From positions 928,001 through 992,000 of the forward strand of contig CAWBKB010000003.1 of assembly GCA_963789265.1 (NCBI GenBank): a stretch of 64,000 bases of DNA, in the 5' to 3' direction. The notes under the pieces were generated by a model. That model searched no databases. It saw only the letters and a list, made by a program, of their open reading frames with translations, and was not told where the DNA came from. The translations under genes and the position numbers were made by a program. Every line of letters begins with the position of its first letter. The stretch's first letter is position 1. Shown here piece after piece: positions 47,480-64,000 of this stretch. Source of the stretch: an uncultured delta proteobacterium. Lineage in GTDB: Bacteria; Desulfobacterota; Desulfomonilia; Desulfomonilales; Desulfomonilaceae.

Positions 47480-48511
47480 TTATTGCAACCCGAACCACAC
47501 GGCTACGAGCAAGCTGAAAGACACCAGGGAATTCACGTTGAAAAACGCCAAGTCTAAACGGCTCAAGTCGTCGGGATGGAGCAGCCGGTGTTCGAGGTAG
47601 AGCAGTCCGCATGTGACAAGACCTAATAGGTAGAATGTCCGGTTTAGCCCTGCCAACCTTCCCGTCAACATGAACAGGCAGACCGCCGCGATATGGGCAA
47701 GGCCTGCCGAGCGAAGAGCTGCACGGGTTCCGAGCCAAGCCGGCAAAGAGTGCAGTTTGACCATGCGGTCAAATTCTACATCTTGGCAGGCGTAAATGAT
47801 GTCAAAACCGGCAACCCAGAAGAGGACCCCGGTTCCTAAAATCGCCGGGATCCAATCCACTCGTCCCGCGACCGCCAACCATCCTGCCACTGGGGCCAGA
47901 CCAAGACATAATCCCAGGAACAGATGGCACATCCAGGTAAACCGTTTCGTATAAGAGTAGGCCAGCAGAATTGCAAGCGCCACTGGAGACAGGAAGAAAC
48001 AGACCCGGTTCAGAGCCAAAGCGGAAAGGAAGTAGACGCCCACAGCTACCACGACCAGAGCCCAAGCTTGGCGCACATTGATCTGACCGGAAGGAATTTC
48101 CCTGTTGGCGGTTCGAGGATTCAGCGCATCCAAGTCACGGTCCACCAATCTATTGAATGCCATGGCAGCGGTTCTGGCCCCGGCAAACGCCAGTGCTATA
48201 AGCCCCAAAACCTTCAGACTCGGCATACCGCGAGCCGCCAGAATGGATCCGGTTAATGCCAGCGGCAACGCGAACAATGTGTGCTCGATCTTCACCAAAG
48301 AGAACAGGCGTAGGATTATCGCAAAGGGTTTCGTGCGATCTGTCCTTGTCGCAAATCCCGGAGAGCATGCAGTCCGCGTTGAGCCGGTTCCTACAGTGGC
48401 CTCATTCAAAATACAGGGAATCATACAGCTACTGTCACCTTGGCCCTTGGCCAAAGACCTGCTGACGCTATCGGGTGCATCTGATCTGTCGTCAATTTGC
48501 CCTGTCGGCAT
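47480..48511 (-). CDS. UbiA-family polyprenyltransferase (MqnP-like)
   Basis: VKIEHTLFALP, ARTAAMAFNRLVD..D..NPRT.REIP, YSYTKRFT, GFDIIYACQD, AFFNVN; the true start is probably downstream (for example ATG 48424). Confidence 0.9.
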   Translation of the reverse strand: MPTGQIDDRSDAPDSVSRSLAKGQGDSSCMIPCILNEATVGTGSTRTACSPGFATRTDRTKPFAIILRLFSLVKIEHTLFALPLALTGSILAARGMPSLKVLGLIALAFAGARTAAMAFNRLVDRDLDALNPRTANREIPSGQINVRQAWALVVVAVGVYFLSALALNRVCFFLSPVALAILLAYSYTKRFTWMCHLFLGLCLGLAPVAGWLAVAGRVDWIPAILGTGVLFWVAGFDIIYACQDVEFDRMVKLHSLPAWLGTRAALRSAGLAHIAAVCLFMLTGRLAGLNRTFYLLGLVTCGLLYLEHRLLHPDDLSRLDLAFFNVNSLVSFSLLVAVWFGLQ

Positions 48512-48515
48512 TGAA

Positions 48516-49952
48516 TTATCCCAGGTTAAGTTTAGTCCATATTGCGTCGATTCTGGATTTGACCTCTCGATCCATCTCGATCAGCTCGGGCCAGGGTCGA
48601 GAATGACCTTCCTCAGCACCTTTCCGGGTGCAATCAAATCCCATTTTCGTACCCAGGTGGGGCAGGTCCGAGGAATGGTCGAGCGCGTCAACAGGTCCCT
48701 TCACCACGCACAGATCGCGCCCCGGCTCCAGATTGGCTCCCAGGAAAAAAAGCACCTGACCGATGTCTTGAACATCCACATAATGATCGAAAACAAAAAT
48801 CATCTTTGTAAACATCATTTGACCGAAGCCCCACAGCGCGTGCATCACCTTATGAGCCTGGCCGGGATAACTCTTGCGAATGGCTACGAAACAAAGGTTG
48901 TGGAAGACCCCCTCCACAGGCAAGTTAATGTCAACGATTTCAGGGAGCTGTTTCTTTATAAGAGGCAAAAAGAGTCTCTCGGTGACTTTGCCAAAGAAAG
49001 CATCCTCCATTGGAGGCCGGCCGACGAGAGTGGCTGGATATATGGGATTCTTGCGTCGGGTAATCGCCGTAAGGTGAAACATCGGGTACAGGTCGGCCGG
49101 TGAGTAGTATCCGGTGTGATCTCCGAATGGTCCCTCGACTCGTGTCTCACCGGGAACCACGTACCCTTCCAGGACAAATTGAGACTCCGCCGGAACTTCC
49201 AGGTCGCAGGTTACGCACTTCACGATCTCCACCGGCTTTTTTCGAAGGAATCCAGAGAGGATCAGCTCGTCCAAATCTTCGGGCAACGGTGCAATGGCAC
49301 TGTAGGTGGTGATGGGATCGGGTCCGAGAGCTACGGCCACCTGCATGGGCTCCTGAGCCGAGCGAAAGTGTTCCGCTCCCCCTTTATGTATGTGCCAATG
49401 CATGCCGCAGGTTTCGCTATCGTAGACCTGCAAACGGTACATGCCGACATTTCGACGGCCGGTCCGGGGATGCCGAGTGATGACCACCGGCAGCGTGATG
49501 AACGGGCCCCCGTCCCCAGGCCAGGAGGTCAATACGGGCAGCTCCCTCAGGTCTAAGCCCTGCGTCCGGACCACTTCCCGGCACGGTCCGTCTTTGACCC
49601 GCTTGGGAAAAATGCAAGCGATATCCTTAAGTTTGGGAAGCAGTTTCAGCTTGTCGATAAAGCCCTTGGGCGGCTCCAGATTCAGGAATTCCTGAAACCT
49701 GTCACCAAGGTCATTCAGCTCGGCAATGTCAAAGATAGCCTTTATCCTATCCAAGGCTCCGTATATATTCGTCAGAACGGGATAATTGTACCCGGTTGGG
49801 TGTTCGAATAGGAGAGCCGGCCCGCCTTTCTTGACCACCCGATCCGTCAACTCCGCTATCTCCAAATGGGGACTCAAGTTATCGGTAACACAAGCCAGTT
49901 GGTCGGTCCGTTTCAAAAATTCTATTAGATTCTGCAAGTTGTCAAAAGCCAT
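48516..49952 (-). CDS. UbiD-family menaquinone biosynthesis decarboxylase (MqnL-like)
   Basis: GGPALLF, WPGDGGPFITLP, NVGMYRLQ, MHWHIHK, EGPFGDHTGYY, GRPPMED. Confidence 0.9.
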   Translation of the reverse strand: MAFDNLQNLIEFLKRTDQLACVTDNLSPHLEIAELTDRVVKKGGPALLFEHPTGYNYPVLTNIYGALDRIKAIFDIAELNDLGDRFQEFLNLEPPKGFIDKLKLLPKLKDIACIFPKRVKDGPCREVVRTQGLDLRELPVLTSWPGDGGPFITLPVVITRHPRTGRRNVGMYRLQVYDSETCGMHWHIHKGGAEHFRSAQEPMQVAVALGPDPITTYSAIAPLPEDLDELILSGFLRKKPVEIVKCVTCDLEVPAESQFVLEGYVVPGETRVEGPFGDHTGYYSPADLYPMFHLTAITRRKNPIYPATLVGRPPMEDAFFGKVTERLFLPLIKKQLPEIVDINLPVEGVFHNLCFVAIRKSYPGQAHKVMHALWGFGQMMFTKMIFVFDHYVDVQDIGQVLFFLGANLEPGRDLCVVKGPVDALDHSSDLPHLGTKMGFDCTRKGAEEGHSRPWPELIEMDREVKSRIDAIWTKLNLG

Positions 49953-51212
49953 TTAGGCTCCAATCCGGCTGTTTAAAGACGGTCCCGCGCCTATTGACGT
50001 CATGGCCTTGTGCAGTTCCGAAACCGCAATTCCGGCGAATTCCGTGTCGTTGATATGGAAGTCCGCTTCTATCACTTTAACCCGAGAATCCAACAACGTC
50101 TTCAAGGCCGTGACAAAGACGCGATTCGTTTCCGGATCATAAAGGGGCCCACCGGGCGCGTCTGCTTCGGACCACCCTTTCAAGGGAATTACAACTGACG
50201 AGGGACCCTTGGCATGGTTCAATTTGGCGGCTATGACCTCTGCCAAGCGGAGGAGATCGTCCGCGCTGGTGCGCACGCCGGATCGGAAATCGTACCAGAA
50301 TACCTTTCTGTCTTTGAATCTCTCCGGAATCGTTTCCGGTGAGTCAAATTCCAACACGACGCAATCCAGGCCCCCGGGAACGGCCACCAGGGGTATGCCG
50401 TGGCGCCCCGCAGCCTCCATCCTGCCCGGCCCTATTCCACCGCAGTATCCGTTGTATAACTCATCCGCAAATTCATGAAGTGCAAAGTCCAGCACGCCGT
50501 CGATCAACCCCTGCGATATCAGGTCCTCCATTGCCATTCCGCCCGTGCCGTTAGCATGGAAGGGAGCGACATCATAGCCTTGATCTTCGAGCATCTTCTT
50601 TACCAGCATGGCACCTTCGGTTATGAACCCGAACGAAGTAAGACCGATGATGGGCCTTTGCCGATCCATACGAACGGGGCTCGACACCATCCCTGCCATC
50701 GCTGCGGCAGCGTTTGCGAGTATTTTTCTGCTCAGCGGGTTGAGACCCAGGATGTCTATCACCGAGTGCATCATGGTGATGTCTTTCGTTCCTATCAAAT
50801 CACTCATGTCGCGGCTTGCGACGGTTGAGAGCATCACCTTGGGTAGTCCCAAAGGCAGCGAGCGCATGATTCCGGTCCCAATGTGGGTCCCTGTCCCGCC
50901 TCCCAGGGCGAGAATACCCGAAACCACTCCCTGCCGGTGCAGGTCGTTGACTATCCTTTCAGCTCCCCGGGTCATTGTTTGAATGGCCAACCTTCGATCG
51001 CCCTTTTTCAGCAGCTCTTGCAATTGAACTCCGCCCGCGGTCGCAACCTGTTCACGTGAAATGTCCGACTGGATCCCGGGAGCATGGAGAACTCCGACGT
51101 CAATTACGAGTGTGGAACACGCGGCATCTTCGAGTAGCCGCTTCACGTACCCGATTTCCTCGCCTTTGGTGTCCAGAGTTCCTACGATAACGACCGTTGG
51201 CGGCATAGGCAC
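49953..51212 (-). CDS. Tm-1-like ATP-binding domain protein (UPF0261), copy 1
   Basis: GTLDTKGEE, LGGGTGT, LPLGLPKVMLST, FHANGTGG.AME, PGGLD, HIND..FA. Confidence 0.88.
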   Translation of the reverse strand: MPMPPTVVIVGTLDTKGEEIGYVKRLLEDAACSTLVIDVGVLHAPGIQSDISREQVATAGGVQLQELLKKGDRRLAIQTMTRGAERIVNDLHRQGVVSGILALGGGTGTHIGTGIMRSLPLGLPKVMLSTVASRDMSDLIGTKDITMMHSVIDILGLNPLSRKILANAAAAMAGMVSSPVRMDRQRPIIGLTSFGFITEGAMLVKKMLEDQGYDVAPFHANGTGGMAMEDLISQGLIDGVLDFALHEFADELYNGYCGGIGPGRMEAAGRHGIPLVAVPGGLDCVVLEFDSPETIPERFKDRKVFWYDFRSGVRTSADDLLRLAEVIAAKLNHAKGPSSVVIPLKGWSEADAPGGPLYDPETNRVFVTALKTLLDSRVKVIEADFHINDTEFAGIAVSELHKAMTSIGAGPSLNSRIGA

Positions 51213-51290
51213 CTCTTGTGGTTGGGTTGCCAGCTCACATTACAGGAGCCCCCTCCCGTCGGCAACAAAATTAAGGGGTATTGTGCAGAT

Positions 51291-52191
51291 CTATTGAGGG
51301 AGGTTCTTTTCCGCGTATTTCTTCAAAATCTCCAGGAAATGACCCAACGCAGGAGACAATGGCTCGTTTCGTCGAATCACGACATCGCTCTGGAAACCTA
51401 TGGTGCCTTCGAGAAGCAGAATGGGTTTTAGAACCCCACGGGACAGTTCTTCCTCGATCTCGTGCGACAATATGAACGAAATCCCCATCTTTCTCTCGAT
51501 GTACCCAAGTATTGAAACCGAGGCTTTCTGATTCGACCAGTAACGAAGGGGTCACGTCGAATCGTCGCAATAGCTGAAGGATCGCATTACGTGACCCTGA
51601 ACCCCGCTCCCTGAGAATCATGGCTTCTCCGTCAAGCGATTTTATGGGGACAGGATTGCCGGTCGCTAGAGGGTGGTCCGGTCGGGCAACCAGGACAAAC
51701 TCCGCCCGCGCAAACGGAACAGCCCTCAAGTCGGACCCGTACTCCGAACGGGCCACCACCACAAGGTCCTGCTTTCTGATCCGGACTCTATTGATTAGAT
51801 CGGCTGAGTTGCCTTCACTGAGATGCACGCAAATTCGAGGATATTTCTCCTGGAAACGCGCAATAAGATCGGGCATGACGATGCCCGCGTAAGCTTTTGT
51901 GATTCCTATTTTCAATACCTCAGAAGTGGCCTTTCGCGCTTTCTCGAGAAGTCCCTCGGCCTGTTCGATGCGCGAAAAAATACTTTTGCTCAGCAAAAAG
52001 AGCTGGTCCCCTGCTTCGGTAAGCACGTACTCGTGAGCCTGCCGGTAGAAAAGTTGCACGCCGCATTCAGCCTGAAAACTTCTAAGTTGCTGAGAGACCG
52101 CCGGCTGCGTCACATTTAGACACTCTGCGGCCCCGCTCATACTCATGAACCGGCAGAAGTAATGAAATGTTTCAAGATGCTTGAGATTCAT
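51291..52191 (-). CDS. LysR-family transcriptional regulator (+1 frameshift near 51512)
   Basis: MNLKHLETF..S.AAE.LNVTQPAVSQQ HTH; RERGSGSR; C-terminal GISFIL in the next frame. Confidence 0.9.
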
Positions 52192-52453: not shown

Positions 52454-53017
52454 TTGAAGAGAGTTGTTGTTGCTATTTCCGGCGCGAGCGGCGTCATTTA
52501 CGGCGTCCGGCTTCTGGAGGTTCTTAAGCAGCTTGACGGGATTGAGACTCACCTGATCCTTAGTCATGGAGCAAGCATTACAATGAAATTGGAAACATCC
52601 CTGGATCCTGAGCAGGTGCAGGCGTTGGCAGATAGATCGTATTCCCCCGACGATCTTGCAGCTCCTCTTTCCAGCGGATCGTTCCGTACAGAAGGGATGA
52701 TTGTGGCTCCGTGCTCCATGAAAAGCCTTTCAATGATCGCCTTGTCTCTCAACGATAATCTCCTCATCCGGGCAGCGGACGTGACATTGAAGGAGCGCAG
52801 GAAGCTTGTCCTTGTCCCGCGTGAGACACCCCTACATCTTGGCCACCTGCGGGCCATGATCGCGGTTACGGAGATGGGCGGAATAATCCTGCCGCCTGTT
52901 CCATCGTTTTATCACCGCCCCAGCACCATTGAAGACGTTGTGGACCAAACCATCGGCAAGGTGCTGGATCAATTCGGACTACCAAACAATCTCTTTAACC
53001 GCTGGGGCGGAGGATGA
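52454..53017 (+). CDS. ubiX: Flavin prenyltransferase UbiX
   Basis: ISGASG, SSGS, APCSMKSL, RAADVTLKERRKL..RETP, FYHRP. Confidence 0.96.
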   Translation: MKRVVVAISGASGVIYGVRLLEVLKQLDGIETHLILSHGASITMKLETSLDPEQVQALADRSYSPDDLAAPLSSGSFRTEGMIVAPCSMKSLSMIALSLNDNLLIRAADVTLKERRKLVLVPRETPLHLGHLRAMIAVTEMGGIILPPVPSFYHRPSTIEDVVDQTIGKVLDQFGLPNNLFNRWGGG

Positions 53018-53533
53018 CGAAGGAAGAGCTGGAAGGTGCTGTGATCGCTTACATGGACTCGTTCACTACGATGACGCTCGCGTGCAGTACCAGAAGATAA
53101 GCCTTGGACAGCGGCCGTTTATTACGCCCGGCAAGGTTTGGATTTGATCTTCTTCTCTTCTCCCACCTCCCGCCATTCAGAGATCTTTTCCCGGAATCCC
53201 CTGGCCGCAGCCGCCATACATGGAGACTATCGGGGATGGAAGGAGATCAAAGGGTTGCAGATGGAAGGACGCATCCACTCCGTGACCGGCCCAAAAGCAA
53301 AGGCCCGTGCTATTTCTACCTATGTGAAGCGACATCCTTTTGTTCGTGAATTTGTCTCCGATCCACTGTCTATTAGTTCGGAAATCGCAAGAAAAATGAC
53401 CAAAGTGAATCTCTACTTCTTCCGGCCTGACGCGATTTTGTACCTCAATAACGAGGCCGGCTTTGGAACTCGATGGAAGCTGGAAGTTGAAGGAGGGCGG
53501 GCCTCCGGTCTGGCTGGGGAACCTTTGCTCTGA
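53014..53533 (+). CDS. Pyridoxamine 5'-phosphate oxidase-like (FMN split-barrel) protein (+1 frameshift near 53092)
   Basis: ATGA overlap with ubiX; MTLACS..PW.AAVYY, FFSSP.SRHS, IKGLQMEG, N..GFG.R. Confidence 0.82.
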
Positions 53534-53634
53534 TTGAGTTCTCCATAGCCTCTTCCGACAACCTCCAATGTATTGGCGCTTTTCTGGACCTTCCTCAACT
53601 GAACGTCAACCAACAACAACCAGGAGGTGTAGAG

Positions 53635-55467
53635 ATGGCCGATGTGAAGTTCCCCAGCCCGCACGAGGCGGAAAGCATCCCGGGAACCGAGGGATGGGAA
53701 AGAATGTTCCCGTACCATTATCAGTTCAGCACCAGTGATCCGGAACGAAAGAAGTACGAAGAAAGCATGTTCTGGTTCTACGACGGGCTGCACTACCCGG
53801 AGCCGATGTATCCTTTTGACATCATGTGGGATGAAGCTTGGTTTCTTGCTCTGTCCCAGTACAACAGCCGCATCTTCATTGTTCCGCCGGCCATGGGGAT
53901 AGACCACAGAATCCATAACGGCTACATCTACATCACGCCTCTCCCGGTTGCCAATCCGGAGGATATCCCCAAGCGCGCGGAACTCTTCATGAAGCGCGCG
54001 GGTTATTACTATCAGAATTGGAAGGAACTCGAAAAAAGCTGGGAAGGCAAGATGCGCAAGGTGATCACGGAGCTCATCGAGATCGAGATCCCGTCCCTCC
54101 CTGAAATGGAAGATGAGTCGGTCGTTTTCAAGGGAATAGGCCAGTCTTCCGGGTACAAACTTCTCAATGCCTACGACAGGCTGATAGACCAGGGAATACT
54201 CTGTTGGCAATACCATTTCGAGTTCTTGAACCTGGGATACGCTGCGTACGTCTTTTTCATGGACTTTTGCCAGAAGGCGTTTCCCGACATCACGGCGCAA
54301 CAGATAACTCAAATGGTTAGCGGCATTGATGTCATGATGTTCAGGCCGGACGAAGAACTCAAAAAACTGGCCAAACTAGCGGTAGAACTGGGAGTAGACG
54401 ACATTCTCCTGAAGGGCAAAGACGGTTCAGTGCTGGAAGAATTGAAAGCCTCCGAAAACGGGGCAAAATGGCTGAAAGATTTGGATGCAGCTCGCGATCC
54501 GTGGTTCTATGTCTCTTCCGGCACTGGGTGGTATCACGATCATGTTTCATGGAACGACGATTTCGCCTTCCCGCTCTCTTTTATAAACATCTATGTCGAA
54601 AAACTCAGGGCTGGAAAAAGCATCGATCGTCCCAAGGAAGCAGTGGCCAAGAGGCGCGACCAGTTGACGCAAGGCTACAGAGATCTCCTCAAGACCGACG
54701 AGGACAGGACTACCTTCGATCAGATGTTGACTCAAGCAAGGACTGTTTTTCCTTATGTTGAAAACCATCTCTTTTACGTCGAGCATTGGTTCCACAGCAT
54801 CTTCTGGAACAAGGTCCGAGAAGTTGCAAAAATCCTGGTCGACGCCAAATTCATCCAGGACGTAGAGGATGTTTGGTACTTGACCCGAGCCGAGATCAAG
54901 GACGCTCTTTGGGATGTCGTGACCTCTTGGGCCACAGGCTCCAAACCCCGCGGGCCTCTGGTATGGCCTCAAGAAGTAGTTTGGAGAAAACAGTGCATGG
55001 AAAAATTTCGGGAATGGACTCCGCCTGCTGCTATGGGCACTGTCCCCGAAACTATCAATGAGCCTTTCACCATAATGCTCTGGGGTATCACCTCCGAGTC
55101 AATGGCAAATTGGGCGAAGCTCAAAGCTATAGGCGAGGGGGATGTCTCCAAGATCATCGGATTCCCCGGTTCACCCGGGACGGCTGAGGGTCCTGCGCGA
55201 GTATGCCGCAAGGTATCCGACATTACAGATCTGAAGGAAGGTGAAATCCTGGTCTCTACAACGACTTCGCCGAGTTGGGCACCTGCTTTCCAGAAGATCA
55301 GGGCCGCAGTGACCGACGTCGGCGGGGTCATGTGCCATGCTGCCATCGTGTGTCGGGAGTACGGCCTTCCCGCGGTGGTTGGGACAGGCTCGGCAACATC
55401 AAGGATCAAAACTGGCCAACGAATCAGGGTAGATGGTGTTTCCGGCGAAGTTGATATCCTCTCATGA
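53635..55467 (+). CDS. ppsA: Phenylphosphate synthase alpha subunit (PEP-utilising mobile domain, phospho-His)
   Basis: IPGTEGWERM.PYHYQF, FYDGLHYPEP, WQYHFEFLNLGYAAY, VENHLFYVEHWFHS, HAAIVCREYG closely match my recollection of Thauera PpsA. Confidence 0.9.
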   Translation: MADVKFPSPHEAESIPGTEGWERMFPYHYQFSTSDPERKKYEESMFWFYDGLHYPEPMYPFDIMWDEAWFLALSQYNSRIFIVPPAMGIDHRIHNGYIYITPLPVANPEDIPKRAELFMKRAGYYYQNWKELEKSWEGKMRKVITELIEIEIPSLPEMEDESVVFKGIGQSSGYKLLNAYDRLIDQGILCWQYHFEFLNLGYAAYVFFMDFCQKAFPDITAQQITQMVSGIDVMMFRPDEELKKLAKLAVELGVDDILLKGKDGSVLEELKASENGAKWLKDLDAARDPWFYVSSGTGWYHDHVSWNDDFAFPLSFINIYVEKLRAGKSIDRPKEAVAKRRDQLTQGYRDLLKTDEDRTTFDQMLTQARTVFPYVENHLFYVEHWFHSIFWNKVREVAKILVDAKFIQDVEDVWYLTRAEIKDALWDVVTSWATGSKPRGPLVWPQEVVWRKQCMEKFREWTPPAAMGTVPETINEPFTIMLWGITSESMANWAKLKAIGEGDVSKIIGFPGSPGTAEGPARVCRKVSDITDLKEGEILVSTTTSPSWAPAFQKIRAAVTDVGGVMCHAAIVCREYGLPAVVGTGSATSRIKTGQRIRVDGVSGEVDILS

Positions 55468-55491
55468 ACTGCCTTAGCGGAGGACTTAGCG

Positions 55492-56571
55492 ATGGAAAAC
55501 TCCGAGTACGTGCTCCCCTTCGAGGAATGTGACCTCACCATGGTCGCTAAAGTGGGCGGCAAGTGTGCTAGTTTGGGGGAGCTTTTGAAGGCGCGCATTC
55601 CCGTCCCACCTGGATTTGCCGTTACTACCGACGCTTATGAGCTTTTCCTCGAAGAAAACGGTCTGACTGAAGGAGTAATGGGTAAACTCAAGGACTTGGA
55701 TGAAAGCAGGCTCGATGAAATCAACCGGGCATCTTCTGAAATTCGAGCCCACATAGAAGCGGGGACGATCAACGAACCCCTGGAAGATATTATTGCGGAG
55801 CACTATCGCTCCCTGGCAAAACGTTCCAGGACCCCAGCAGTACCTGTCGCAGTCCGATCTTCCGCCACCGCCGAGGACCTCCCCGACGCGAGCTTTGCAG
55901 GCCAACAAGATACCTTCCTCTGGGTGCGAGGAGTGGACGACTTGTTCGACAAGATACGCAAGTGCTGGTCCAGTTTGTTCACTGCTCGCGCCATTTCTTA
56001 CAGGACGAAAATGGGATTCGACCATTCCAAAGTACTGCTGAGCGTAGCAGTCCAAAAGATGGTCCGGTCCTTTGCCGCAGGAGTCATGTTTACCCTCAAC
56101 CCGTCTACAGGTGACCGCTCGACGGTCGTGATCGACTCGAACTGGGGATACGGGGAGAGTGTAGTCTCCGGCGAAGTAACACCGGACCAATTTCAAGTCA
56201 ACAAGATCACTATGGAGGTTGTCAGGAAGACGGTCTCTGACAAGGCAATGTACTACACGACGGATCCGGAGACCGATGAGGTAAAGAAACTTGAGGTCGC
56301 GTCTGAGCAACGGACGTCTCAGAGTCTGCTGGACGCCGAGATTATTGAACTGGCCAAGATGGCCAAGTTGATTGAGAAACATTACGGCAAGCCCATGGAT
56401 ATTGAATGGGCCACTGAAAAATCCCTCCCTTACAAAGGGGAAGTATTCATTCTCCAGAGCCGCCCGGAAACTGTCTGGAGCCGGAAAGAGGTGAAGCCCG
56501 TAGTGGAGCCCCGAAAGAGCGCGCTTGAGCACATAGTCGCGGGACTCATTGCTGGAAAGAAGATCAGATAA
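55492..56571 (+). CDS. ppsB: Phenylphosphate synthase beta subunit (PEP synthase N-terminal ATP-binding domain)
   Basis: VGGKCASLGE, VAVRSSATAEDLPDASFAGQQDT, GESVVSG, DIEWA, LQSRPET; stand-alone domain next to ppsA. Confidence 0.9.
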   Translation: MENSEYVLPFEECDLTMVAKVGGKCASLGELLKARIPVPPGFAVTTDAYELFLEENGLTEGVMGKLKDLDESRLDEINRASSEIRAHIEAGTINEPLEDIIAEHYRSLAKRSRTPAVPVAVRSSATAEDLPDASFAGQQDTFLWVRGVDDLFDKIRKCWSSLFTARAISYRTKMGFDHSKVLLSVAVQKMVRSFAAGVMFTLNPSTGDRSTVVIDSNWGYGESVVSGEVTPDQFQVNKITMEVVRKTVSDKAMYYTTDPETDEVKKLEVASEQRTSQSLLDAEIIELAKMAKLIEKHYGKPMDIEWATEKSLPYKGEVFILQSRPETVWSRKEVKPVVEPRKSALEHIVAGLIAGKKIR

Positions 56572-56743
56572 CTCCAAATTGACAAGCCTGTAGGTGATGA
56601 TCGCCGCACCCGTGGACAGGGGTTGGGAATGCTGGACTATGACCACCGGGAGCTAGTGGCGAAGTGCGCCCTGAAAAGGGCAAAACAGGAACTCGCGGGC
56701 ATGACCGAGCGTTCGAAAACATCGATCCAAGGAGGATAGCAAC

Positions 56744-58186
56744 ATGAAGGAATTGAGGGACTTTATCAACCGGTGCGAACAAGAAGGGGAACTCCTTCGC
56801 ATCAAAACTGAGGTCGACTGGAACCTCGAGCTGAACCATGTCGCTAAAATCAGCGAGGAGCGCAAAGGCCCAGCGCTCCTGTTCGAGAACGTCAAAGGCT
56901 ATGACATTCCCGTTTTGACAAGTGCATTTACAACTACCAGGCGCTTCGCCATCGCTCTGGACATGCCGCTTGATTCTTCTATTTGCGACATGGCTCGTGA
57001 ATGGATGCAGCTCACGATAAAAAAGCCTGTTAGGGCCAAAATTGTGGACTCCGGCCCTGTCCGTGAAATGGAGATCAAGGGCAAGGACGTCGATATCCTG
57101 TCTTTACCGGTTCCCTTTTTCAACCCACTGGATGGCGGACGATTCATTGGTACCGCGGTTTACCTCGTGACTAAGGACAAGGAATCGGGATGGACCAATT
57201 GCGGAACCTATCGAATGCAGGTTCATGACCGGAATCACTGCGGTGTCCAGATCATCAAAGGTAAACACGCTGACTTCCACTTCAACCAGCATAAGAAAGA
57301 CGGTACAAAAATGCCGGCGGCCGCAGTCATCGGCGCGGACGCGGTTCACTTTCTTGTTTCATCGACTCTGGTATCAGCCCAAACGGATGAATTCGACATC
57401 ATCAGCACGCTTCGTCAAGAACCGTGTGAGATATTTGAGAGTGAGCTCACGGGGCTCAAACTGCCGGCCAACGCGGAGATTATTCTGGAGGGTTGGATCG
57501 ATCCGGCAGACATGCGAGAAGAGGGCCCCTTTGGCGAGTACACAGGCTATTATTCCGGTGCAAAGGGCGAAGAATGGCCGAAGCAGGTGCTCCATATCGA
57601 GCGCATACTAAGGCGCAAGAAACCTGTCTTCTGGGCAACCACAGTCGGCAAGCCGATCACGGACACTCACATGATCCAGTCTCTCAACCGGAGCGCTACT
57701 CTGTGGACGGATCTGGAGAACATGAAGATTCCGGGAATCAAATCCGTTTACTTTCTTCCGGAATCCACAGGCCGCTACTGGTGCGTTGTTTCCGTAGAGC
57801 AGAAATACCCTGGTCATTCCAATCAAGTAGGCAATGCCGTCATCGCAACGACTACGGGGCATTACGGAGTCAAGGGAGTAATCGTGGTAGGTGACGACGT
57901 GCCCGCGGACGATTGGGACAGAGTCATGTGGTCTCTTGCAGTTCGATTCGATCCGAAGCGTGATGCGCAGATTATTGATCGTGGGCGTTCCACCCCTCTG
58001 GACCCGGCTCTTCCCATCAACGCGCGCCATATAACTTCGAGAATCATTATGGACGCTTGCACTCCTTTTGAGTGGGAGAGAAAGCCGATCGAGATCTTTC
58101 TCGATGAAGACATGAAGAAGAAAGTCCTTGCCAGATGGAAAGAATACGGCTTTGAGGATTGGAGCGCAGCTATCTGCAAACCCTGA
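56744..58186 (+). CDS. ppcB: Phenylphosphate carboxylase beta-like subunit (UbiD family)
   Basis: EVDWNLE..HV.K..EE.KGPALLF, EGPFGEYTGYY, PESTGR.W, RGRSTPLDPAL, MDAC.P.EW match recalled PpcB features. Confidence 0.82.
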   Translation: MKELRDFINRCEQEGELLRIKTEVDWNLELNHVAKISEERKGPALLFENVKGYDIPVLTSAFTTTRRFAIALDMPLDSSICDMAREWMQLTIKKPVRAKIVDSGPVREMEIKGKDVDILSLPVPFFNPLDGGRFIGTAVYLVTKDKESGWTNCGTYRMQVHDRNHCGVQIIKGKHADFHFNQHKKDGTKMPAAAVIGADAVHFLVSSTLVSAQTDEFDIISTLRQEPCEIFESELTGLKLPANAEIILEGWIDPADMREEGPFGEYTGYYSGAKGEEWPKQVLHIERILRRKKPVFWATTVGKPITDTHMIQSLNRSATLWTDLENMKIPGIKSVYFLPESTGRYWCVVSVEQKYPGHSNQVGNAVIATTTGHYGVKGVIVVGDDVPADDWDRVMWSLAVRFDPKRDAQIIDRGRSTPLDPALPINARHITSRIIMDACTPFEWERKPIEIFLDEDMKKKVLARWKEYGFEDWSAAICKP

Positions 58187-58310
58187 GATAGTGGGCGCTC
58201 AGGAGATAAGCCGCCTAGGAACACAGTAAGTGTTTCGGCATAAACTCCTGAGCCTTTACCGCAGGACTTGCACAAGCTTAAACACATCGGCAAGGGAGGT
58301 GCACGGGCTG

Positions 58311-59971
58311 ATGAGACCCATACGCTATACCGATGACATGATAGACGAATTTCGATCTCAGGGATTGTGGACGGATGAAACGTTCGCTGATTATTGGCTG
58401 AAGAAACGCCCACGAACGCCCGGATAAAGAGGCTCTGGTAGATTCCACCACGCGAGTAACGTGGGCGGAGGCGGCTAAGCTCATGGATCGCTTCGCTCTG
58501 GCGTGGATACACATGGGGCTGGAAAGGGACGACAGAGTAATCCTGCAGGCCCCGAACTGCGCCTATGGATTCCTGTCCAGGATTGCGTGTGAGCGGGCCG
58601 GTCTGATCAATATCACGGTTATGCCTTATCTGCGTCAGAAAGAACTGACACATCTAATCAACAAGATAGATCCCAGGGCCATGATTATTCCCGGAATATA
58701 CAGGAAATTTAATTACCTCGAAATGGTAGAGGAACTCAAGCGAGAGTTCACCCGCTTGAAATACACGTTTCTTCTCGACGAATCCATTCCCGGCCCTTAT
58801 CCGGAAAACACCCACTCTTTGGTGAAGATCGCGCAGGAGCCGTGGGAAGAGAAGACTGACCCAACCGTCCTTAAGACGACAAGGTTTCATGCAACTGGCG
58901 ATGTGGGGGCTCTAACCAGTACCAGCGGAACGACCGGGGTACCCAAAATCGTCGAATGGCCTCTCGCACCGAGATTGATGACATCCAAATGTCGAGTGGA
59001 AATCTGGAAGCTTACAGGCGATGACGTGGCCCTCGCCGTCGCACCGTTTGCCGGTGGCGCGGCCGGAACCCTGACATATTTTGCAGCTCCTCTCGTTGGA
59101 GCGAAAATCGTACTGCTGGAAGAATTTACTCCCGCTGGTGCTCTGGAGATGATTGAGAAAGAGAAAGTGACCGCGATAGGGGTTGTTCCTACTCATGTCG
59201 TTCGAATGCTGGAGCAGGATCTTTCGAAATACGATCTTTCCTCTCTTAGGTTTATCCGATCCGCCGGCGGATACTTACCACCCAAGGTGGCCATGGAGGC
59301 TGAGGAGCGTCTGGGCGGACGTATAACGTCAGACCTTGGAACCCAGGACGTCGGCTCCGTCTCCGGCTGCTCCATAGACGATCCCGGTGATGTTCGGCGA
59401 CGAACCGTGGGCAAACCTTTGAAAGGTAACAAAATAAGGCTGCTCGATGAGCATGGCAAGGAAGTACCCGACGGAGAACCGGGCATCCTGTATTTGAGAG
59501 GACCTCACTCACCGGCGGGCTATTGGAGAGATCCGGTCGCCACCCGTGAAGTCTTCGATGACAACAACTGGACTACAACGGGCGACATCGTCACTCTCGA
59601 AGACGGCCGTATATGGATCATGGGCCGGCAGAAAGACATGATCATACGCGGCGGCCAGAACATTTATCCTGCGGAAATCGAAGGGTTGCTGAACGAGCAT
59701 CCCAAGGTTTCCGCAATCTCCATCGTGGCGATGCCCGACAAGGAATTCGGGGAGAGATGTTGCGCTTACGTAGTGCCCAAAGCAGGAGGGATGTTCAGCT
59801 TCGATGAAATGGTCTCATTCCTGAAGGAAAAGAAGTTGGCCATGTACAAATTGCCAGAAACGCCTCGAAATCATTGAGGCCATGCCTACTGTAGGCGACT
59901 CGGGCAAAATCGACAAGAAGATTCTGAAAAAGCGGATCGAGGAAAAAATAGCAGCCGAGGGGAAGGTCTGA
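58311..59971 (+). CDS. AMP-forming acyl/aryl-CoA ligase (+1 frameshifts near 58404 and 59860)
   Basis: TSTSGTTGVPK, TTGD, GRQKDMIIRGGQNI, YKLPE, GKIDK; TGATG overlap with the next gene. Confidence 0.88.
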
Positions 59972-61203
59972 TGGAACGGGTCATTCTCCTCATATCAACC
60001 CTTGACACGAAGGGACCCGAAACCCTCTACCTGCGGGACAAGATCCGTGAGAGAGGCCACAATCCGGTGGTGCTGGATGTCGGCATGTCCGACGAAGCAT
60101 CGGGCGCGGATATCTCTCCTGCAGACGTGGCGCAGGCGGGAGGCGCAAACATAGAAGAGATCAGGTCCTCCAGGGACCGAAAAACAATCACCCGGCAAAT
60201 GATCAATGGAGCGATTAAGCTTGCCCGCGACCTTCTGGATTCGGGTCGCTTGGCCGGCGTCATAGGACTCGGCGGCTCGACCGGCAGCCTGATGGCGACT
60301 GACGTGATGCGCTCTCTGCCTTTTGGTATCCCCAAGCTCATGGTCTCCTCTACTGCTGCACTGCCCGGGCTTGCCACACGGTACATCGGAACCGGAGATG
60401 TGGCTATCCTGCACACGGTGATTGAAATTTCGGGTCTTACCCCGCTGTTGGTGAACCTGCTCGACCGGGCCGCCGCGGCCATAGTGGGAATGTCGAGTGT
60501 TGCACCACTTAGAGTGGAATCTACCCGCGTAGGAGGCCGGCCTCTGGTGGCCATGTCAATGTTTGGGCTCACAGAAAAATGCGCAGAGCGCGTGCGCAAG
60601 GGACTGGAAGATGCGGGATACCAGGTGATCGGCTTTTCCGCAGCCGGAGTTTGTGATCGAGCGATGGAACAGATGCTCAGCCGACGCTTCTTCGACGCGG
60701 TTGTCGATCTAGCCCCCGGTGGGGTGGGTGAAGAGATTTTGGGAGGCATGAGAGCAGCGGGACCGGAGCGACTAACAGTGGCCGGGAGGCTCGGGATTCC
60801 TCAAGTCGTCGCCCCCGGAGGAGTAAACCTCACCAGCCCGCGGAAGTCTCATTATAAACCTGAGCATCATCAACGCAGGAAGTTCGATCTGGACGAGCTC
60901 CGAACATTTCTGCGGGTTTCCGACGACGAGATGGAGCGGATAGCCTACGTTTTTGCCGAAAAGCTCTGTCGCGCCACGGGCCCGGTGATACTCCTTTTCC
61001 CGGCAAAGGGGTGGTCGGCTGCGGATCCTCCCTCCGGCCACATGTTCGATGGAGAACAGGACCGAATATTCCTTAAGATATTGAAGGAAAGGACCGGTCC
61101 ACATCTTATAACACGGGAGGTTGATGCAAATTTGGAAGATGAGGCGTTCGCCGGCGAGGTGATCAAGGCGTGCCTTGAAGTGTTTCCCAAGCCGATTTCT
61201 TGA
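59971..61203 (+). CDS. Tm-1-like ATP-binding domain protein (UPF0261), copy 2
   Basis: STLDTKGPE, LGGSTGS, LPFGIPKLMVSS, SMFG.T, RAME, APGG. Confidence 0.86.
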   Translation: MERVILLISTLDTKGPETLYLRDKIRERGHNPVVLDVGMSDEASGADISPADVAQAGGANIEEIRSSRDRKTITRQMINGAIKLARDLLDSGRLAGVIGLGGSTGSLMATDVMRSLPFGIPKLMVSSTAALPGLATRYIGTGDVAILHTVIEISGLTPLLVNLLDRAAAAIVGMSSVAPLRVESTRVGGRPLVAMSMFGLTEKCAERVRKGLEDAGYQVIGFSAAGVCDRAMEQMLSRRFFDAVVDLAPGGVGEEILGGMRAAGPERLTVAGRLGIPQVVAPGGVNLTSPRKSHYKPEHHQRRKFDLDELRTFLRVSDDEMERIAYVFAEKLCRATGPVILLFPAKGWSAADPPSGHMFDGEQDRIFLKILKERTGPHLITREVDANLEDEAFAGEVIKACLEVFPKPIS

Positions 61204-61245
61204 CGAAAAGAGAACGGCCATAGACAACCAAGGAGGAAAGGCATC

Positions 61246-62351
61246 ATGGAAACCCCAAAAATTGGTGTCGGCCCCACAGGTCCGGTTGCCGGGCTTATTC
61301 AGTTCCTGGCCTTTGCAGTTGCCGGAGTTGTCATCTTCGTCTATGCAATCCCTTCAGATCTCATCGTCATGAAGATTATCCCCGCAACACTACTGATGCT
61401 GGTCGCCCTCGGCCATCTTGTGCTGCTTGGAGACAATTTTCCTCTGGCGCCGCCGGGTGGAACGTGGTGGACCCCCGACAAACCTCGTTACGTGGCAGGA
61501 ATAGGGATGACTGTCATTTGGGCCATCTTTACGTTCGGGCTGCTGCTCTTCATGAGATTCGTATATCCAAAATGGCCGTTGGGACCTCTCTATCTGTGGT
61601 TCGGTGTGATTGCGTTCTGGCTGACTTTGCTCTATGGAGTCAACTGGAACGGTTGGCCTTTTAAGGGGCGCATCCATCCATGGGGAACGATGGCGGCAGG
61701 CTTCATCATTGTCATGGGCCTCTCCATCTTGATCTGGAATTTTTTGACGAATCTGGATGGAACCCCTCTTGCCGCTACCCCCATGAATCACAAGGGTCCT
61801 TTCAATGTCAACTGGCTAACTGGATATCTGGTTCTGGTGTATTGCATGGAGCTTCGTGTTCAATCCTGTCTTCATCACACAGGGTTGGCCTTTCCGTTCT
61901 TGGGGACATCCTGGTGCGGCAGTGGGTCAGACCGTTCTTTCTATTGTCTTAGCTTACGTCTTCTGGCAGGGGAGTTTGGCCGTAGGTCTTAGTCCCACCT
62001 TTTCTTTTGCCGCTGTGGCCTCGTCCATCATCTTCTGGTCTTTGGTCTATAGCTGGCATCTCCAATTCTGGGGAGTTACCAAATACACGTTTTTCAAAAG
62101 GTCGATTTCGGCATTCATTATCGAGTGCATCATAGTCATGGTCTCGGCTTATCATATCGAAAGTGATTCTTGGCCCTGTAGCCGAGAAAATAGCAGCAGC
62201 GAAGTTACCCGCAGACGTAAGCATTCTCATAATCTATCTCAACCTCTGTATTGTCGGTCCGGCCCTCATCCTGCACAATGCCTTCTGGTTAAGATGGCCG
62301 TTGACAATACCGACTCCTCCGGGAACACCACCACCGGATCAAGCCGCATGA
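61246..62351 (+). CDS. Multi-pass integral membrane protein, putative transporter (+1 frameshifts near 61830 and 62145)
   Basis: About 10 hydrophobic segments once three frames are joined; repeated (G)WP(F/L) motifs; SD AGGAGG. Confidence 0.7.
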
Positions 62352-62440
62352 AAAAGTGCTTCCGTCGGCATTGCCGGTACTTGGAAGGCGAGGTGTAAGC
62401 CCATGAGACGAATTCGACATGCGGGCTCCATCCGGGGTTG

Positions 62441-62545
62441 GTAGAGGCTACCGTCGGGCGCCTGGGGCGAATGGCATTCGCCCCCACAGTTCCCCCATGG
62501 CGCGGGAATGACGGCCTGTCAGGGCGGGTTTCAAACCCGCCCCCA
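62441..62545. repeat. REP-like elements
   Basis: GGGGCGAATGGCATTCGCCCC and GGGCGGGTTTCAAACCCGCCC. Confidence 0.8.
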
Positions 62546-62659
62546 CGCCGACCCTTCAAAACTCTATGCATAGGATGGCCCCAAAGACATCCTTTGCGGC
62601 AACCGCTTTAGCTGATCGATACTCTTCCGAACTATTCATCCGGTCCAAAGGAGGCCATC

Positions 62660-63301
62660 ATGTATGTGAAGAACTGGATGCTGCCCGCACAATTTTCCAT
62701 ATCCAGTGACGCTTTGGCCACCGACGCACTGTTGCTGATCCGGGAGCATAATCTGAAAATTCTTCCCGTGGTCGACAATGGTCGGCTGCGTGGAGTTCTC
62801 CACCGTCGCGATCTCAGCGAGGCCGCACTGTGCGTCAGCGGCAGCGGTGATCTTTGCGAAATGAGGTACTTTTGTAACAAGCTCAAAGTCAAGGATCTTA
62901 TGGTCCGAATGCCTGTCACGGTTTCAATCAATGACACGGTAGAGAAAGTTCTTATCAAGGGTAAAGAGCTTATGATAAGCAGTTTTCCGGTTATGGACGG
63001 GGACAAGGTTGCCGGTGTTGTGTCGGATCGCGAGATATTTGTGACACTTTTCAAAATCTTGGAGGCAGGACAAGAACGCACACGGATCACCTTGAGGAAC
63101 GTCGCCCTGGAAAGGGGAACGCTTACAAAGGTTCTCGAAGTGGTCGAAGGGGCGGGTTCAAAGGCCCGTTCAATCTTCACGGTCCCGGAAAACGGTTCCG
63201 ATACGGTCAGAGTGGTGCTGCGTTTGGAAGCAGCGGAGCCTACCGTGGTTTACAAGGCCTTGCAAGATGAGGGATATGATATAATGGAAGCATCTGCTTA
63301 A
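62660..63301 (+). CDS. ppsC: CBS-pair protein, phenylphosphate synthase gamma subunit-like
   Basis: MYVKNWM, LPVVDNGRLRG, YF.NK.KVKD.MVR.P, GTL.KV..VVE.AG resemble recalled PpsC; context supports this. Confidence 0.72.
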   Translation: MYVKNWMLPAQFSISSDALATDALLLIREHNLKILPVVDNGRLRGVLHRRDLSEAALCVSGSGDLCEMRYFCNKLKVKDLMVRMPVTVSINDTVEKVLIKGKELMISSFPVMDGDKVAGVVSDREIFVTLFKILEAGQERTRITLRNVALERGTLTKVLEVVEGAGSKARSIFTVPENGSDTVRVVLRLEAAEPTVVYKALQDEGYDIMEASA

Positions 63302-63315
63302 CGAGGCGAGACTGC

Positions 63316-63903
63316 GTGCACGGTATTTATAAGAAGATCTACGAGCTGGCCGGGCCTTATCTGAATACCAGATCTAATGACCTTCACACCCGTACAGCTT
63401 ACTCTTTTGCATTAAATCTCCTGGAGGCTGAGGGAGGGGACGAGGAGATTGTTATCCCCGCTGTGTTGCTTCACGACGTGGGCTGGAAGACGGTCCCCGA
63501 AGAGCTACAGATTAAGGCATTCGGCCCCGGCGACGTAGACCCTGAAATCAATAGAATACATGAAGTCGAAGGTGCGAAGATTGCCAAAGAGCTGCTTGGA
63601 CAGGTAGGTTACGACCCCGCCCTGGTGGACCGGATCGCTGAGATAATTCTGGGCCATGATTCAAGGCGCAAAGCGATCTCACTCAACGACGCTTTGGTAA
63701 AGGATTCGGATAAGCTGTGGAGGTTCTCGCACGCCGCTATCGGAGTGGATCCCTTTCGTTTCCATGTGGACCCGCGTGACCATGTGGCCTGGCTCGGCAA
63801 CAGCATCTACACGTGGTTCTTCACGGAAACCGCTATCAAAACGGCCCTTGCCGAACAAAGATTGCGACTTCAAGAGTTGGAAAATTCACTGCCGTCGATC
63901 TAG
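63316..63903 (+). CDS. HD-domain phosphohydrolase
   Basis: H...LLHDVG...HE..GA...GHD...DSDKL metal-binding pattern. Confidence 0.85.
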   Translation: MHGIYKKIYELAGPYLNTRSNDLHTRTAYSFALNLLEAEGGDEEIVIPAVLLHDVGWKTVPEELQIKAFGPGDVDPEINRIHEVEGAKIAKELLGQVGYDPALVDRIAEIILGHDSRRKAISLNDALVKDSDKLWRFSHAAIGVDPFRFHVDPRDHVAWLGNSIYTWFFTETAIKTALAEQRLRLQELENSLPSI

Positions 63904-64000
63904 TCCGCTGAGAATACCGGCAGTCAGGGCATAGGCGTTAAAATAGGCTCCAAGTCCACTTCGTCCCGGAGGGACGGCACCATAGTAGCCCGGCGCCTCT

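Follow-up and report, generated by a model that had tools for sequence, protein, structure and literature searches.

Gene content of the operon

We analyzed a 64,000-nucleotide stretch of DNA, hereafter the window, from an uncultured member of the Desulfomonilaceae (phylum Desulfobacterota; GenBank assembly GCA_963789265.1, contig CAWBKB010000003.1, positions 928,001 to 992,000). Near its end, at positions 52454 to 63903, ten genes lie on the plus strand in the order ubiX, FMN split-barrel gene, ppsA, ppsB, ubiD, ligase gene, UPF0261 gene, membrane protein gene, ppsC, and HD-domain gene. An earlier sequence-only reading had described this co-oriented run with two overlapping junctions, and gene calls and family scans agree with its order, as does the sequence with the overlaps (ATGA between ubiX and the barrel gene at 53014 to 53017 and TGATG between the ligase and UPF0261 genes at 59969 to 59973). 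Judging from homology, the run is probably a LysR-controlled operon for the anaerobic activation of phenol, the likeliest substrate, and belongs to the single-PpcB type of Geobacter and Desulfatiglans.

The kinase genes resemble those of phenylphosphate synthase. The ppsA gene (53635 to 55467) encodes a 610-amino-acid (aa) phosphohistidine/substrate subunit that scores above cut-off for PF00391 and NF006152, carries its histidine at position 568, and shares 63% identity with the PpsA of one Thauera-type cluster and 61% with a Geobacter counterpart. The ATP-binding subunit is encoded by ppsB (55492 to 56571; PF01326, 400.9 bits), and a PpsC-like protein with paired CBS domains (PF00571 twice) is encoded at 62660 to 63301. 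Together these genes show the PpsABC signature, that is, a split phosphoenolpyruvate-synthase-like pair, a phosphohistidine near position 569, and a CBS subunit. The carboxylase is a PpcB-type UbiD protein (56744 to 58186) with 580.5 bits to TIGR02724 (cut-off, 468.95) and 180 bits to the PpcA model TIGR02723 (cut-off, 564.6); its residues R157, E260, and E265 are invariant in 71 of 71 alignment rows. The flavin prenyltransferase gene ubiX (52454 to 53017; TIGR00421, 255 bits; cut-off, 109) is the only copy found in the genome, by a single tblastn match. Behind ubiD, an aryl-coenzyme A (CoA) ligase-like adenylating enzyme is encoded at 58311 to 59971 (PF00501 and PF13193; 552 aa in relatives), with P-loop and terminal lysine motifs conserved across 59 orthologues. 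The TGATG overlap couples it to the UPF0261 gene (59971 to 61203), whose product, Tm1b, matches the aryl kinase MarK (PDB 9MPY) at an E value of 5.9e-55.

A single carboxylase subunit

The model phenol pathway of Thauera uses PpcA, PpcC, and PpcD beside PpcB. The sequence-only reading found one PpcB-type UbiD protein and none of the other three subunits in the window; both statements stand, and the second extends to the genome at large (6.06 Mb in 9 contigs, 95.6% complete, 6.1% contamination). Its only other UbiD gene encodes an adjacent menaquinone decarboxylase (48516 to 49952). Neither PpcA (best score, 180.8 bits against a cut-off of 564.6) nor PpcC (zero matches) was found in this genome by searches that were each positive in 24 of 80 genomes, these being 71 from a phylum-wide draw described below and 9 relatives, with 8 further relatives left out. 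For PpcD, the sole match in the genome (147 bits; cut-off, 282) was to KdsC fused to KdsA in a lipopolysaccharide gene context; the score by itself is not decisive, since one in-operon PpcD gets just 152 bits. The apparent KdsA-KdsC fusion occupies one 524-aa open frame (C5:61940-63514 of the source genome) between pyrG and lptC/lptA-like genes, as named from their translations. Directly past position 64000, a TetR gene and then a tungsten aldehyde-oxidoreductase/Fe-S cluster were found, rather than ppcA, ppcC, or ppcD.

Comparison with known systems

With the PpsABC and PpcABCD system of Thauera aromatica (via PMC6114531 and PMC7500099) the window shares the kinase subunits, the PpcB family, UbiX, and the overall strategy, whereas its genome lacks PpcA, PpcC, and PpcD and has UPF0261 and the ligase in their place. 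Geobacter metallireducens has just a ppcB homologue (PMC6114531). Its genes Gmet_2100 to Gmet_2105 are listed as ppsA, ppsB, a carboxylyase, a 1,257-bp hypothetical gene, a CBS protein gene, and ubiX (PMC1924859), and in a locus of the same order from a Geobacter metagenome-assembled genome (MAG) the fourth gene encodes a 417-aa UPF0261 protein. From size and position, we infer that Gmet_2103 is also UPF0261. The sequence-only reading noted that ppsC is displaced, and this holds: PpsC homologues stand directly behind ppsB in Thauera-type loci, while the CBS gene of the window follows UPF0261 as Gmet_2104 follows Gmet_2103. The Geobacter operon differs in lacking the ligase, in a UPF0261 protein that keeps His219 (MarK numbering), and in having ubiX last rather than first. 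In the PpcB tree, the window copy falls in a clade shared with Geobacter-type operons (59 to 60% identity to Geobacter MAG copies).

Another close counterpart is the phe cluster of Desulfatiglans anilini (H567DRAFT_02049 to 02061), which has ppcB alone, ubiX, and a phenol-induced "2,3-dihydroxybenzoate-AMP ligase" whose function is given as unknown (PMC6114531). Its PpcB (02059), 552-aa EntE-like ligase (02058), UPF0261 protein (02057), UbiX (02056), and PpsAB (02052 and 02051) all have counterparts in the window, as does a second UPF0261 gene (02061) two genes upstream of ppcB; the D. anilini genome also lacks ppcC, and the set is raised on phenol. The likeness to these named proteins rests on annotation, length, and order, and our trees use Geobacter and Desulfatiglandaceae MAGs. 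The phe cluster differs in gene order, in holding Hcr-like genes and a second ligase, and in having ppsC outside it; its PpcB, at 468 aa, agrees in length with a second PpcB type of the window's family, described below, and not with the 480 aa of the window copy. In proteomes, the 403-aa 02057 averaged 2.47e9 on phenol (three replicates; standard deviation, 1.76e9) against 1.80e8 on benzoate, 02061 was flat across conditions, and 03869, a UPF0261 protein of the aniline cluster, was detected only on aniline or 4-aminobenzoate (PMC7500099), although the main text of that paper never mentions "03869". The window has the traits of these single-PpcB clusters: a lone PpcB accompanied by PpsAB and UbiX, no ppcA, ppcC, or ppcD in the cluster, and ppcB followed by an EntE-like ligase and UPF0261. 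The view of the sequence-only reading that the cluster is uncharacterized therefore largely falls, as its core matches the phenol-induced phe gene set. What survives of the proposed self-contained variant is a phosphorylate-carboxylate-activate route for a phenolic compound with one UbiD and its own UbiX; the type itself is the published one of strict anaerobes. New here are the conservation of the operon across a family, two swapped carboxylase-ligase types, and counts made on a kinase tree.

UPF0261 as a possible replacement of PpcD

We classed PpcB-like genes (at least 44% identity over 300 residues; 149 rows, reduced to 144 loci by dropping 5 duplicates) by what follows them within 6.5 kb on the same strand. 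UPF0261 of the clade found in the operon followed PpcB in 87 loci, ppcD and/or ppcA in 39, neither in 18, and both in none. In 11 of the 18 loci with neither, the sequence ends within 2.7 kb. Of 401 genomes drawn evenly from the phylum, 71 hold 76 PpcB genes above cut-off, and among these the single-PpcB form was the commoner, with 45 loci of the UPF0261 type, 25 of the ppcD/ppcA type, and 6 with neither. Searches that use ppcA, ppcC, or ppcD as markers would accordingly overlook the majority of the phylum's phenol-type carboxylase loci (45 of 76 in this draw). At the whole-genome level, PpcA or PpcC was found in 0 of the 49 genomes that have only UPF0261-type loci. Among the 39 ppcD/ppcA-type loci, 21 have a pair of ppcD-like genes, in some cases flanking a CoA ligase gene (e.g., L070, L112, and L117).

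We compared these classes with trees of PpcB and PpsA, both built with FastTree. The PpcB tree groups the ppcD/ppcA loci in one clade that sits among lineages of the UPF0261 type, which corresponds to a single change; an approximately unbiased (AU) test that held the UPF0261-type PpcBs together as one clade (29 PpcB rows and 5 outgroups) did not reject that arrangement (P = 0.093), which leaves the nesting unconfirmed. The PpsA tree (87 rows) gives a different picture, with at least 13 changes between the two cassettes, and 10 pairs on well-supported branches, though the ppsA nearest to a locus may not be its cognate one. Loci L039 and L117, for example, share 96% identity in PpsA and 60% in PpcB and carry opposite cassettes. 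This pattern fits the notion that the two cassettes are interchangeable ways to use the same kinase product.

The predicted structure of Tm1b (predicted local distance difference test score, 94) has Tm-1 and MarK as its top fold matches. MarK (Saro_1862 of Novosphingobium aromaticivorans, PDB 9MPY), with which Tm1b shares the UPF0261 family and fold, converts ATP and a phenolic to an aryl phosphate and ADP, as described in 2025 (PMC12624787). There it replaces a two-part kinase, while the window operon holds both UPF0261 and PpsAB. Neither "phenylphosphate" nor "anaerobic" occurs in the main text of that paper, and our search found no published link between UPF0261 and a carboxylase, with most subscription journals and the key 2004 and 2009 papers outside its reach. 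Tm1b retains D12-T13-K14 and G199 (Asp14-Thr15-Lys16 and Gly195 of MarK), so that the fold and the Asp-Thr-Lys motif agree with membership; of the phenol pocket formed by Gly195, His219, and His304, only the glycine is kept. Ser223 and Leu307 replace His219 and His304, and the His348 position has changed too. UPF0261 proteins associated with the operon group in one clade, separate from lysR-linked and MarK-like copies (99 in the Shimodaira-Hasegawa-like approximate likelihood ratio test, quick tree); in the operon clade, the nucleotide site is kept, His304 and His348 are lost, and an Asp308-Arg311 pair is invariant; lysR-linked copies have a similar Asp/Arg pair. Within this clade, the subtype of the window has serine for His219 in 40 of 50 copies and occurs with the ligase in 62 of 62 loci, whereas both remaining subtypes retain His219 and accompany the ligase in 0 of 25.

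Altogether, these observations suggest a route. By homology, PpsAB, stimulated by PpsC, would convert phenol and ATP to phenylphosphate, AMP, and inorganic phosphate via His568. The phosphate would then be removed and the bound phenolate carboxylated in the para position by PpcB with UbiX-made prenylated FMN (prFMN), as its family membership implies. In the Thauera enzyme, phosphate removal is the task of PpcD; here, the MarK-like UPF0261 protein might remove the phosphate, with water or ADP as acceptor, or be a required partner of PpcB. The coupled ligase would form 4-hydroxybenzoyl-CoA and so pull the carboxylation. Later steps would be encoded outside the operon, by an Hcr-like reductase, a class II benzoyl-CoA reductase cluster past the window, and Dch/Oah. 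Oah scores above cut-off and an adjoining Dch-like gene below it, and the Hcr-like genes are 82, 76, and 69% identical to those inside a sister operon. Beyond the window end (L001, 2116 to 15491) lies a double-TetR regulator with a tungsten oxidoreductase/Fe-S/Hdr/Nuo-like cluster, which we take to be the class II benzoyl-CoA reductase bamBCDEFGHI and which stands beside the operon in locus L015 too.

From the co-occurrence, we tentatively propose, at a little under even chances, that UPF0261 replaces PpcD as the dephosphorylating partner. It is the candidate because some protein must dephosphorylate and UPF0261 is the sole gene behind PpcB wherever PpcD is missing. For D. anilini, PMC6114531 leaves open by what means strict anaerobes lacking PpcA, PpcC, and PpcD carboxylate phenylphosphate and how they pay for it; carboxylase activity could not be assayed in extracts there, and the energy cost went unexplained. 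On the gene pattern, UPF0261 is a candidate component for such an assay. D. anilini has two PpcB paralogues, 52% identical, for phenol and aniline; without UPF0261, its PpcB proteins did not carboxylate phenylphosphate in vitro, and refolded PpcB and PpcB2 did carboxylate phenylphosphoamidate. If the P-N bond is the more labile one, activity on phenylphosphoamidate and not on phenylphosphate fits a need for UPF0261.

Several observations weigh against this assignment. The carboxylation of phenylphosphoamidate proceeded in the absence of UPF0261, and MarK has been demonstrated solely as a forward kinase (PMC12624787). The loss of His219, His304, and His348 in the window copy means that its chemistry may differ from that of MarK. 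Among the 18 loci with neither gene, 7 are unexplained by a nearby sequence end (2 of them have UPF0261 upstream or divergent), the UPF0261 gene is missing from two relatives' copies of the operon (L017 and L025), and in L147 and L148 a UPF0261 gene of another clade lies inside a ppcD/ppcA operon. The counts are also not independent, because the ppcD/ppcA loci form one clade and so represent one event. Finally, UPF0261 subtypes shift among PpcB lineages, with 12 changes over the subtype states, which speaks against a tightly co-evolved pair.

It is possible, if doubtful, that UPF0261 is instead a MarK-like forward kinase, be it a second phenol kinase, one trapping 4-hydroxybenzoate or its CoA ester, or one providing UbiX with a phosphorylated prenyl donor, with dephosphorylation left to PpcB or an unlinked phosphatase. 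The reaction of MarK itself speaks for this, as do the N-terminal nucleotide site conserved in all three UPF0261 subtypes (Asp/Glu, Lys/Arg, and a Gly-rich loop) and the strict pairing of the window subtype with the ligase. However, a forward kinase leaves the absence of the clade from all 39 ppcD/ppcA loci unexplained, since those would gain from it equally; the aryl phosphate is already made by PpsAB; and the phenol-binding His219 is serine in most window-type copies.

Returning to UPF0261 as the replacement of PpcD, we consider it rather improbable that, as a phosphotransferase with the MarK fold, it transfers the phosphoryl group from phenylphosphate to ADP, with the ligase pulling the reaction and the Thauera enzyme as the derived form. 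The conserved nucleotide site, the strict exclusion with PpcD, and the energy problem raised in PMC6114531 argue for it. Against it, MarK strongly favors the forward reaction in vitro, so that we estimate reversal plus carboxylation to be uphill, and although the Thauera form is derived in the best tree, the AU test did not establish this. If ADP were the acceptor, energy-limited anaerobes would win back one of the four ATP equivalents that activating phenol costs.

Conservation within the family and the substrate

Within the family, 21 of 24 genomes carry a close PpcB, against 0 of 16 genomes of the other family sampled, and ubiD, ligase, and UPF0261 genes stand in a row in 20 of the 21 PpcB-bearing genomes. 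The commonest frame is UPF0261-lysR, then divergently ubiX-barrel-ppsA-ppsB-ubiD-ligase-UPF0261-ppsC, with the membrane and HD genes variable, and we infer that the operon is conserved across the Desulfomonilaceae. With this, an unstudied family joins the likely phenol degraders; in the accessible literature, the family and phenol meet in community surveys. Two types of ubiD and ligase share the operon frame, one 78 to 97% identical to the window (12 genomes) and one at 48 to 51%, with the ligase at ~62% (9 genomes), and on the tree of one PpsA clade (26 rows) they alternate 6 times. Genome G013 (locus L031) carries two window-type clusters along with a canonical ppcB-ppcD-ppcA-ppcC cluster, and genome G385 carries three UPF0261-type clusters from three PpcB clades (L151, L152, and L171).

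Two points count against phenol and its proposed route. All Hcr matches in the genome stay below the curated cut-off (best, 748 of 995 bits), and the distance of the window's PpcB and ligase from the 9-genome type makes another substrate possible. It is unlikely, in our view, that the same chemistry serves a cresol, catechol, or an amino-aromatic compound, with the second PpcB/ligase type of the family as the phenol version. The existence of two types in one operon frame, both of them in G385, would suit such a division, as would the D. anilini paralogues split between phenol and aniline at 52% identity. In its favor, too, the ligase pocket motif has Phe in the window, and among the 59 orthologues Phe in 14 and His in 40. 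However, the substrate-selecting kinase does not follow the types, as their alternation on one PpsA clade shows; the window PpcB is the only one in its genome; and it groups with operons of the Geobacter type, G. metallireducens being able to grow on phenol. For aniline, the kinase differs as well: the alpha subunit of the D. anilini aniline (ani) kinase is 28% identical to Thauera PpsA and has its histidine at position 512, unlike the 610-aa window PpsA with His568.

Regulatory and accessory genes

Divergent from the operon, on the minus strand, are a lysR gene (51291 to 52191) and, downstream of it, a second UPF0261/Tm-1-like gene, Tm1a (49953 to 51212; Pfam UPF0261 and UPF0261_C). The pair (49953 to 52191) escaped the sequence-only reading and is part of the conserved unit: lysR is present in 62 of the 87 UPF0261-type loci, and Tm1a stands beside lysR in most loci of the family. 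Tm1a retains His219 of MarK, falls in a clade separate from that of the operon copy, and is the positional counterpart of D. anilini 02061. Directly behind it, mqnP- and mqnL-like menaquinone genes occupy 47480 to 49952 on the minus strand, and radical-SAM genes at the same place in two relatives of the genus (L023 and L028) are presumably mqnE and mqnC. We considered a role of the operon in menaquinone synthesis and rejected it, as the mqn adjacency was seen in only one genus (the window, L023, and L028). With no other ubiX found in the genome, the operon copy probably supplies the menaquinone decarboxylase as well.

The FMN split-barrel (PNPOx-like) gene (53014 to 53533) scores 29 bits to PF01243 (cut-off, 28.1) on the intact copy of the relative G001 and occurs in 27 of the 87 UPF0261-type loci versus 4 of the 39 ppcD/ppcA-type loci; its product possibly handles prFMN. 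The membrane protein gene (61246 to 62351), a possible transporter, has no Pfam match and is split over three frames; its nearest atlas cluster, likewise lacking a Pfam match, bears the automatic name "AAT family amino acid transporter" (0.94). It occurs in 7 of the 87 and 3 of the 39 loci, which does not support uptake as a core function, as the sequence-only reading had proposed. The HD-domain gene (63316 to 63903; PF01966) is present in 17 of the 87 and 4 of the 39 loci. We rejected the membrane and HD genes as core parts and regard them, being sporadic across loci, as accessory. HD proteins are metal phosphohydrolases, and the HD gene ends the operon and has a paralogue in another Pps-like region of the genome; given its scarcity in UPF0261-type loci and its presence in loci with ppcD/ppcA, it is very improbable that its product is the phosphatase replacing PpcD.

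Relative to intact relatives, six frame breaks, which the sequence-only reading did not register, interrupt lysR (near 51512), the barrel gene (near 53090), the ligase gene (near 58403 and 59857), and the membrane gene (two); they were judged against the closest relative and one family member. The breaks look like assembly errors. The extra base is missing from otherwise identical contigs at 59858 (runs X1 and X2) and at 61832 (X1), one contig ends at 53091, and gaps or ends appear in more distant contigs at 51513, 58403 to 58406, and 62145. That the operon is decaying in this strain, as six breaks in four genes might suggest and as the gap at 58403 appearing in a more distant run and not the closest among the rows listed (15 rows lie outside them) might favor, is scarcely credible, because each break is a single base, G001 has the genes unbroken at 90 to 97% identity (LysR with 299 aa), and unrelated genes of the same assembly are split too. 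The composition of the window gave no island signal, and a promoter and terminator scan yielded 3 promoter-like sites against 7.7 expected and nothing usable. The GC-rich intergenic stretches at 62420 to 62570, between the membrane gene and ppsC, and at 63927 to 63995, after the HD gene, gather loose ends of unrelated contigs and are probably short repeats.

Other possible aromatic regions of the genome

Two further regions of the source genome carry distant Pps-like genes and no UbiD. The first (C1:1850835-1885307) contains a LysR gene, a third UPF0261 gene, a CoA ligase gene, the HD paralogue (50% identity), and a distant ppsA (25%) and ppsB that lie 11 kb apart, in a layout that resembles the MarK/acetovanillone type; it also holds what we take to be acetone-carboxylase-like genes. 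The second (C6:199021-256784) has two distant PpsA-like and two PpsB-like genes, with one pair followed by an aldehyde-oxidase-like gene and one ppsB by an amidohydrolase-like gene, as labeled from their translations. With 35 matches to the HcrA/xanthine-dehydrogenase family model and 53 tblastn matches to the ligase, the genome has a large aromatic and acyl-CoA repertoire.

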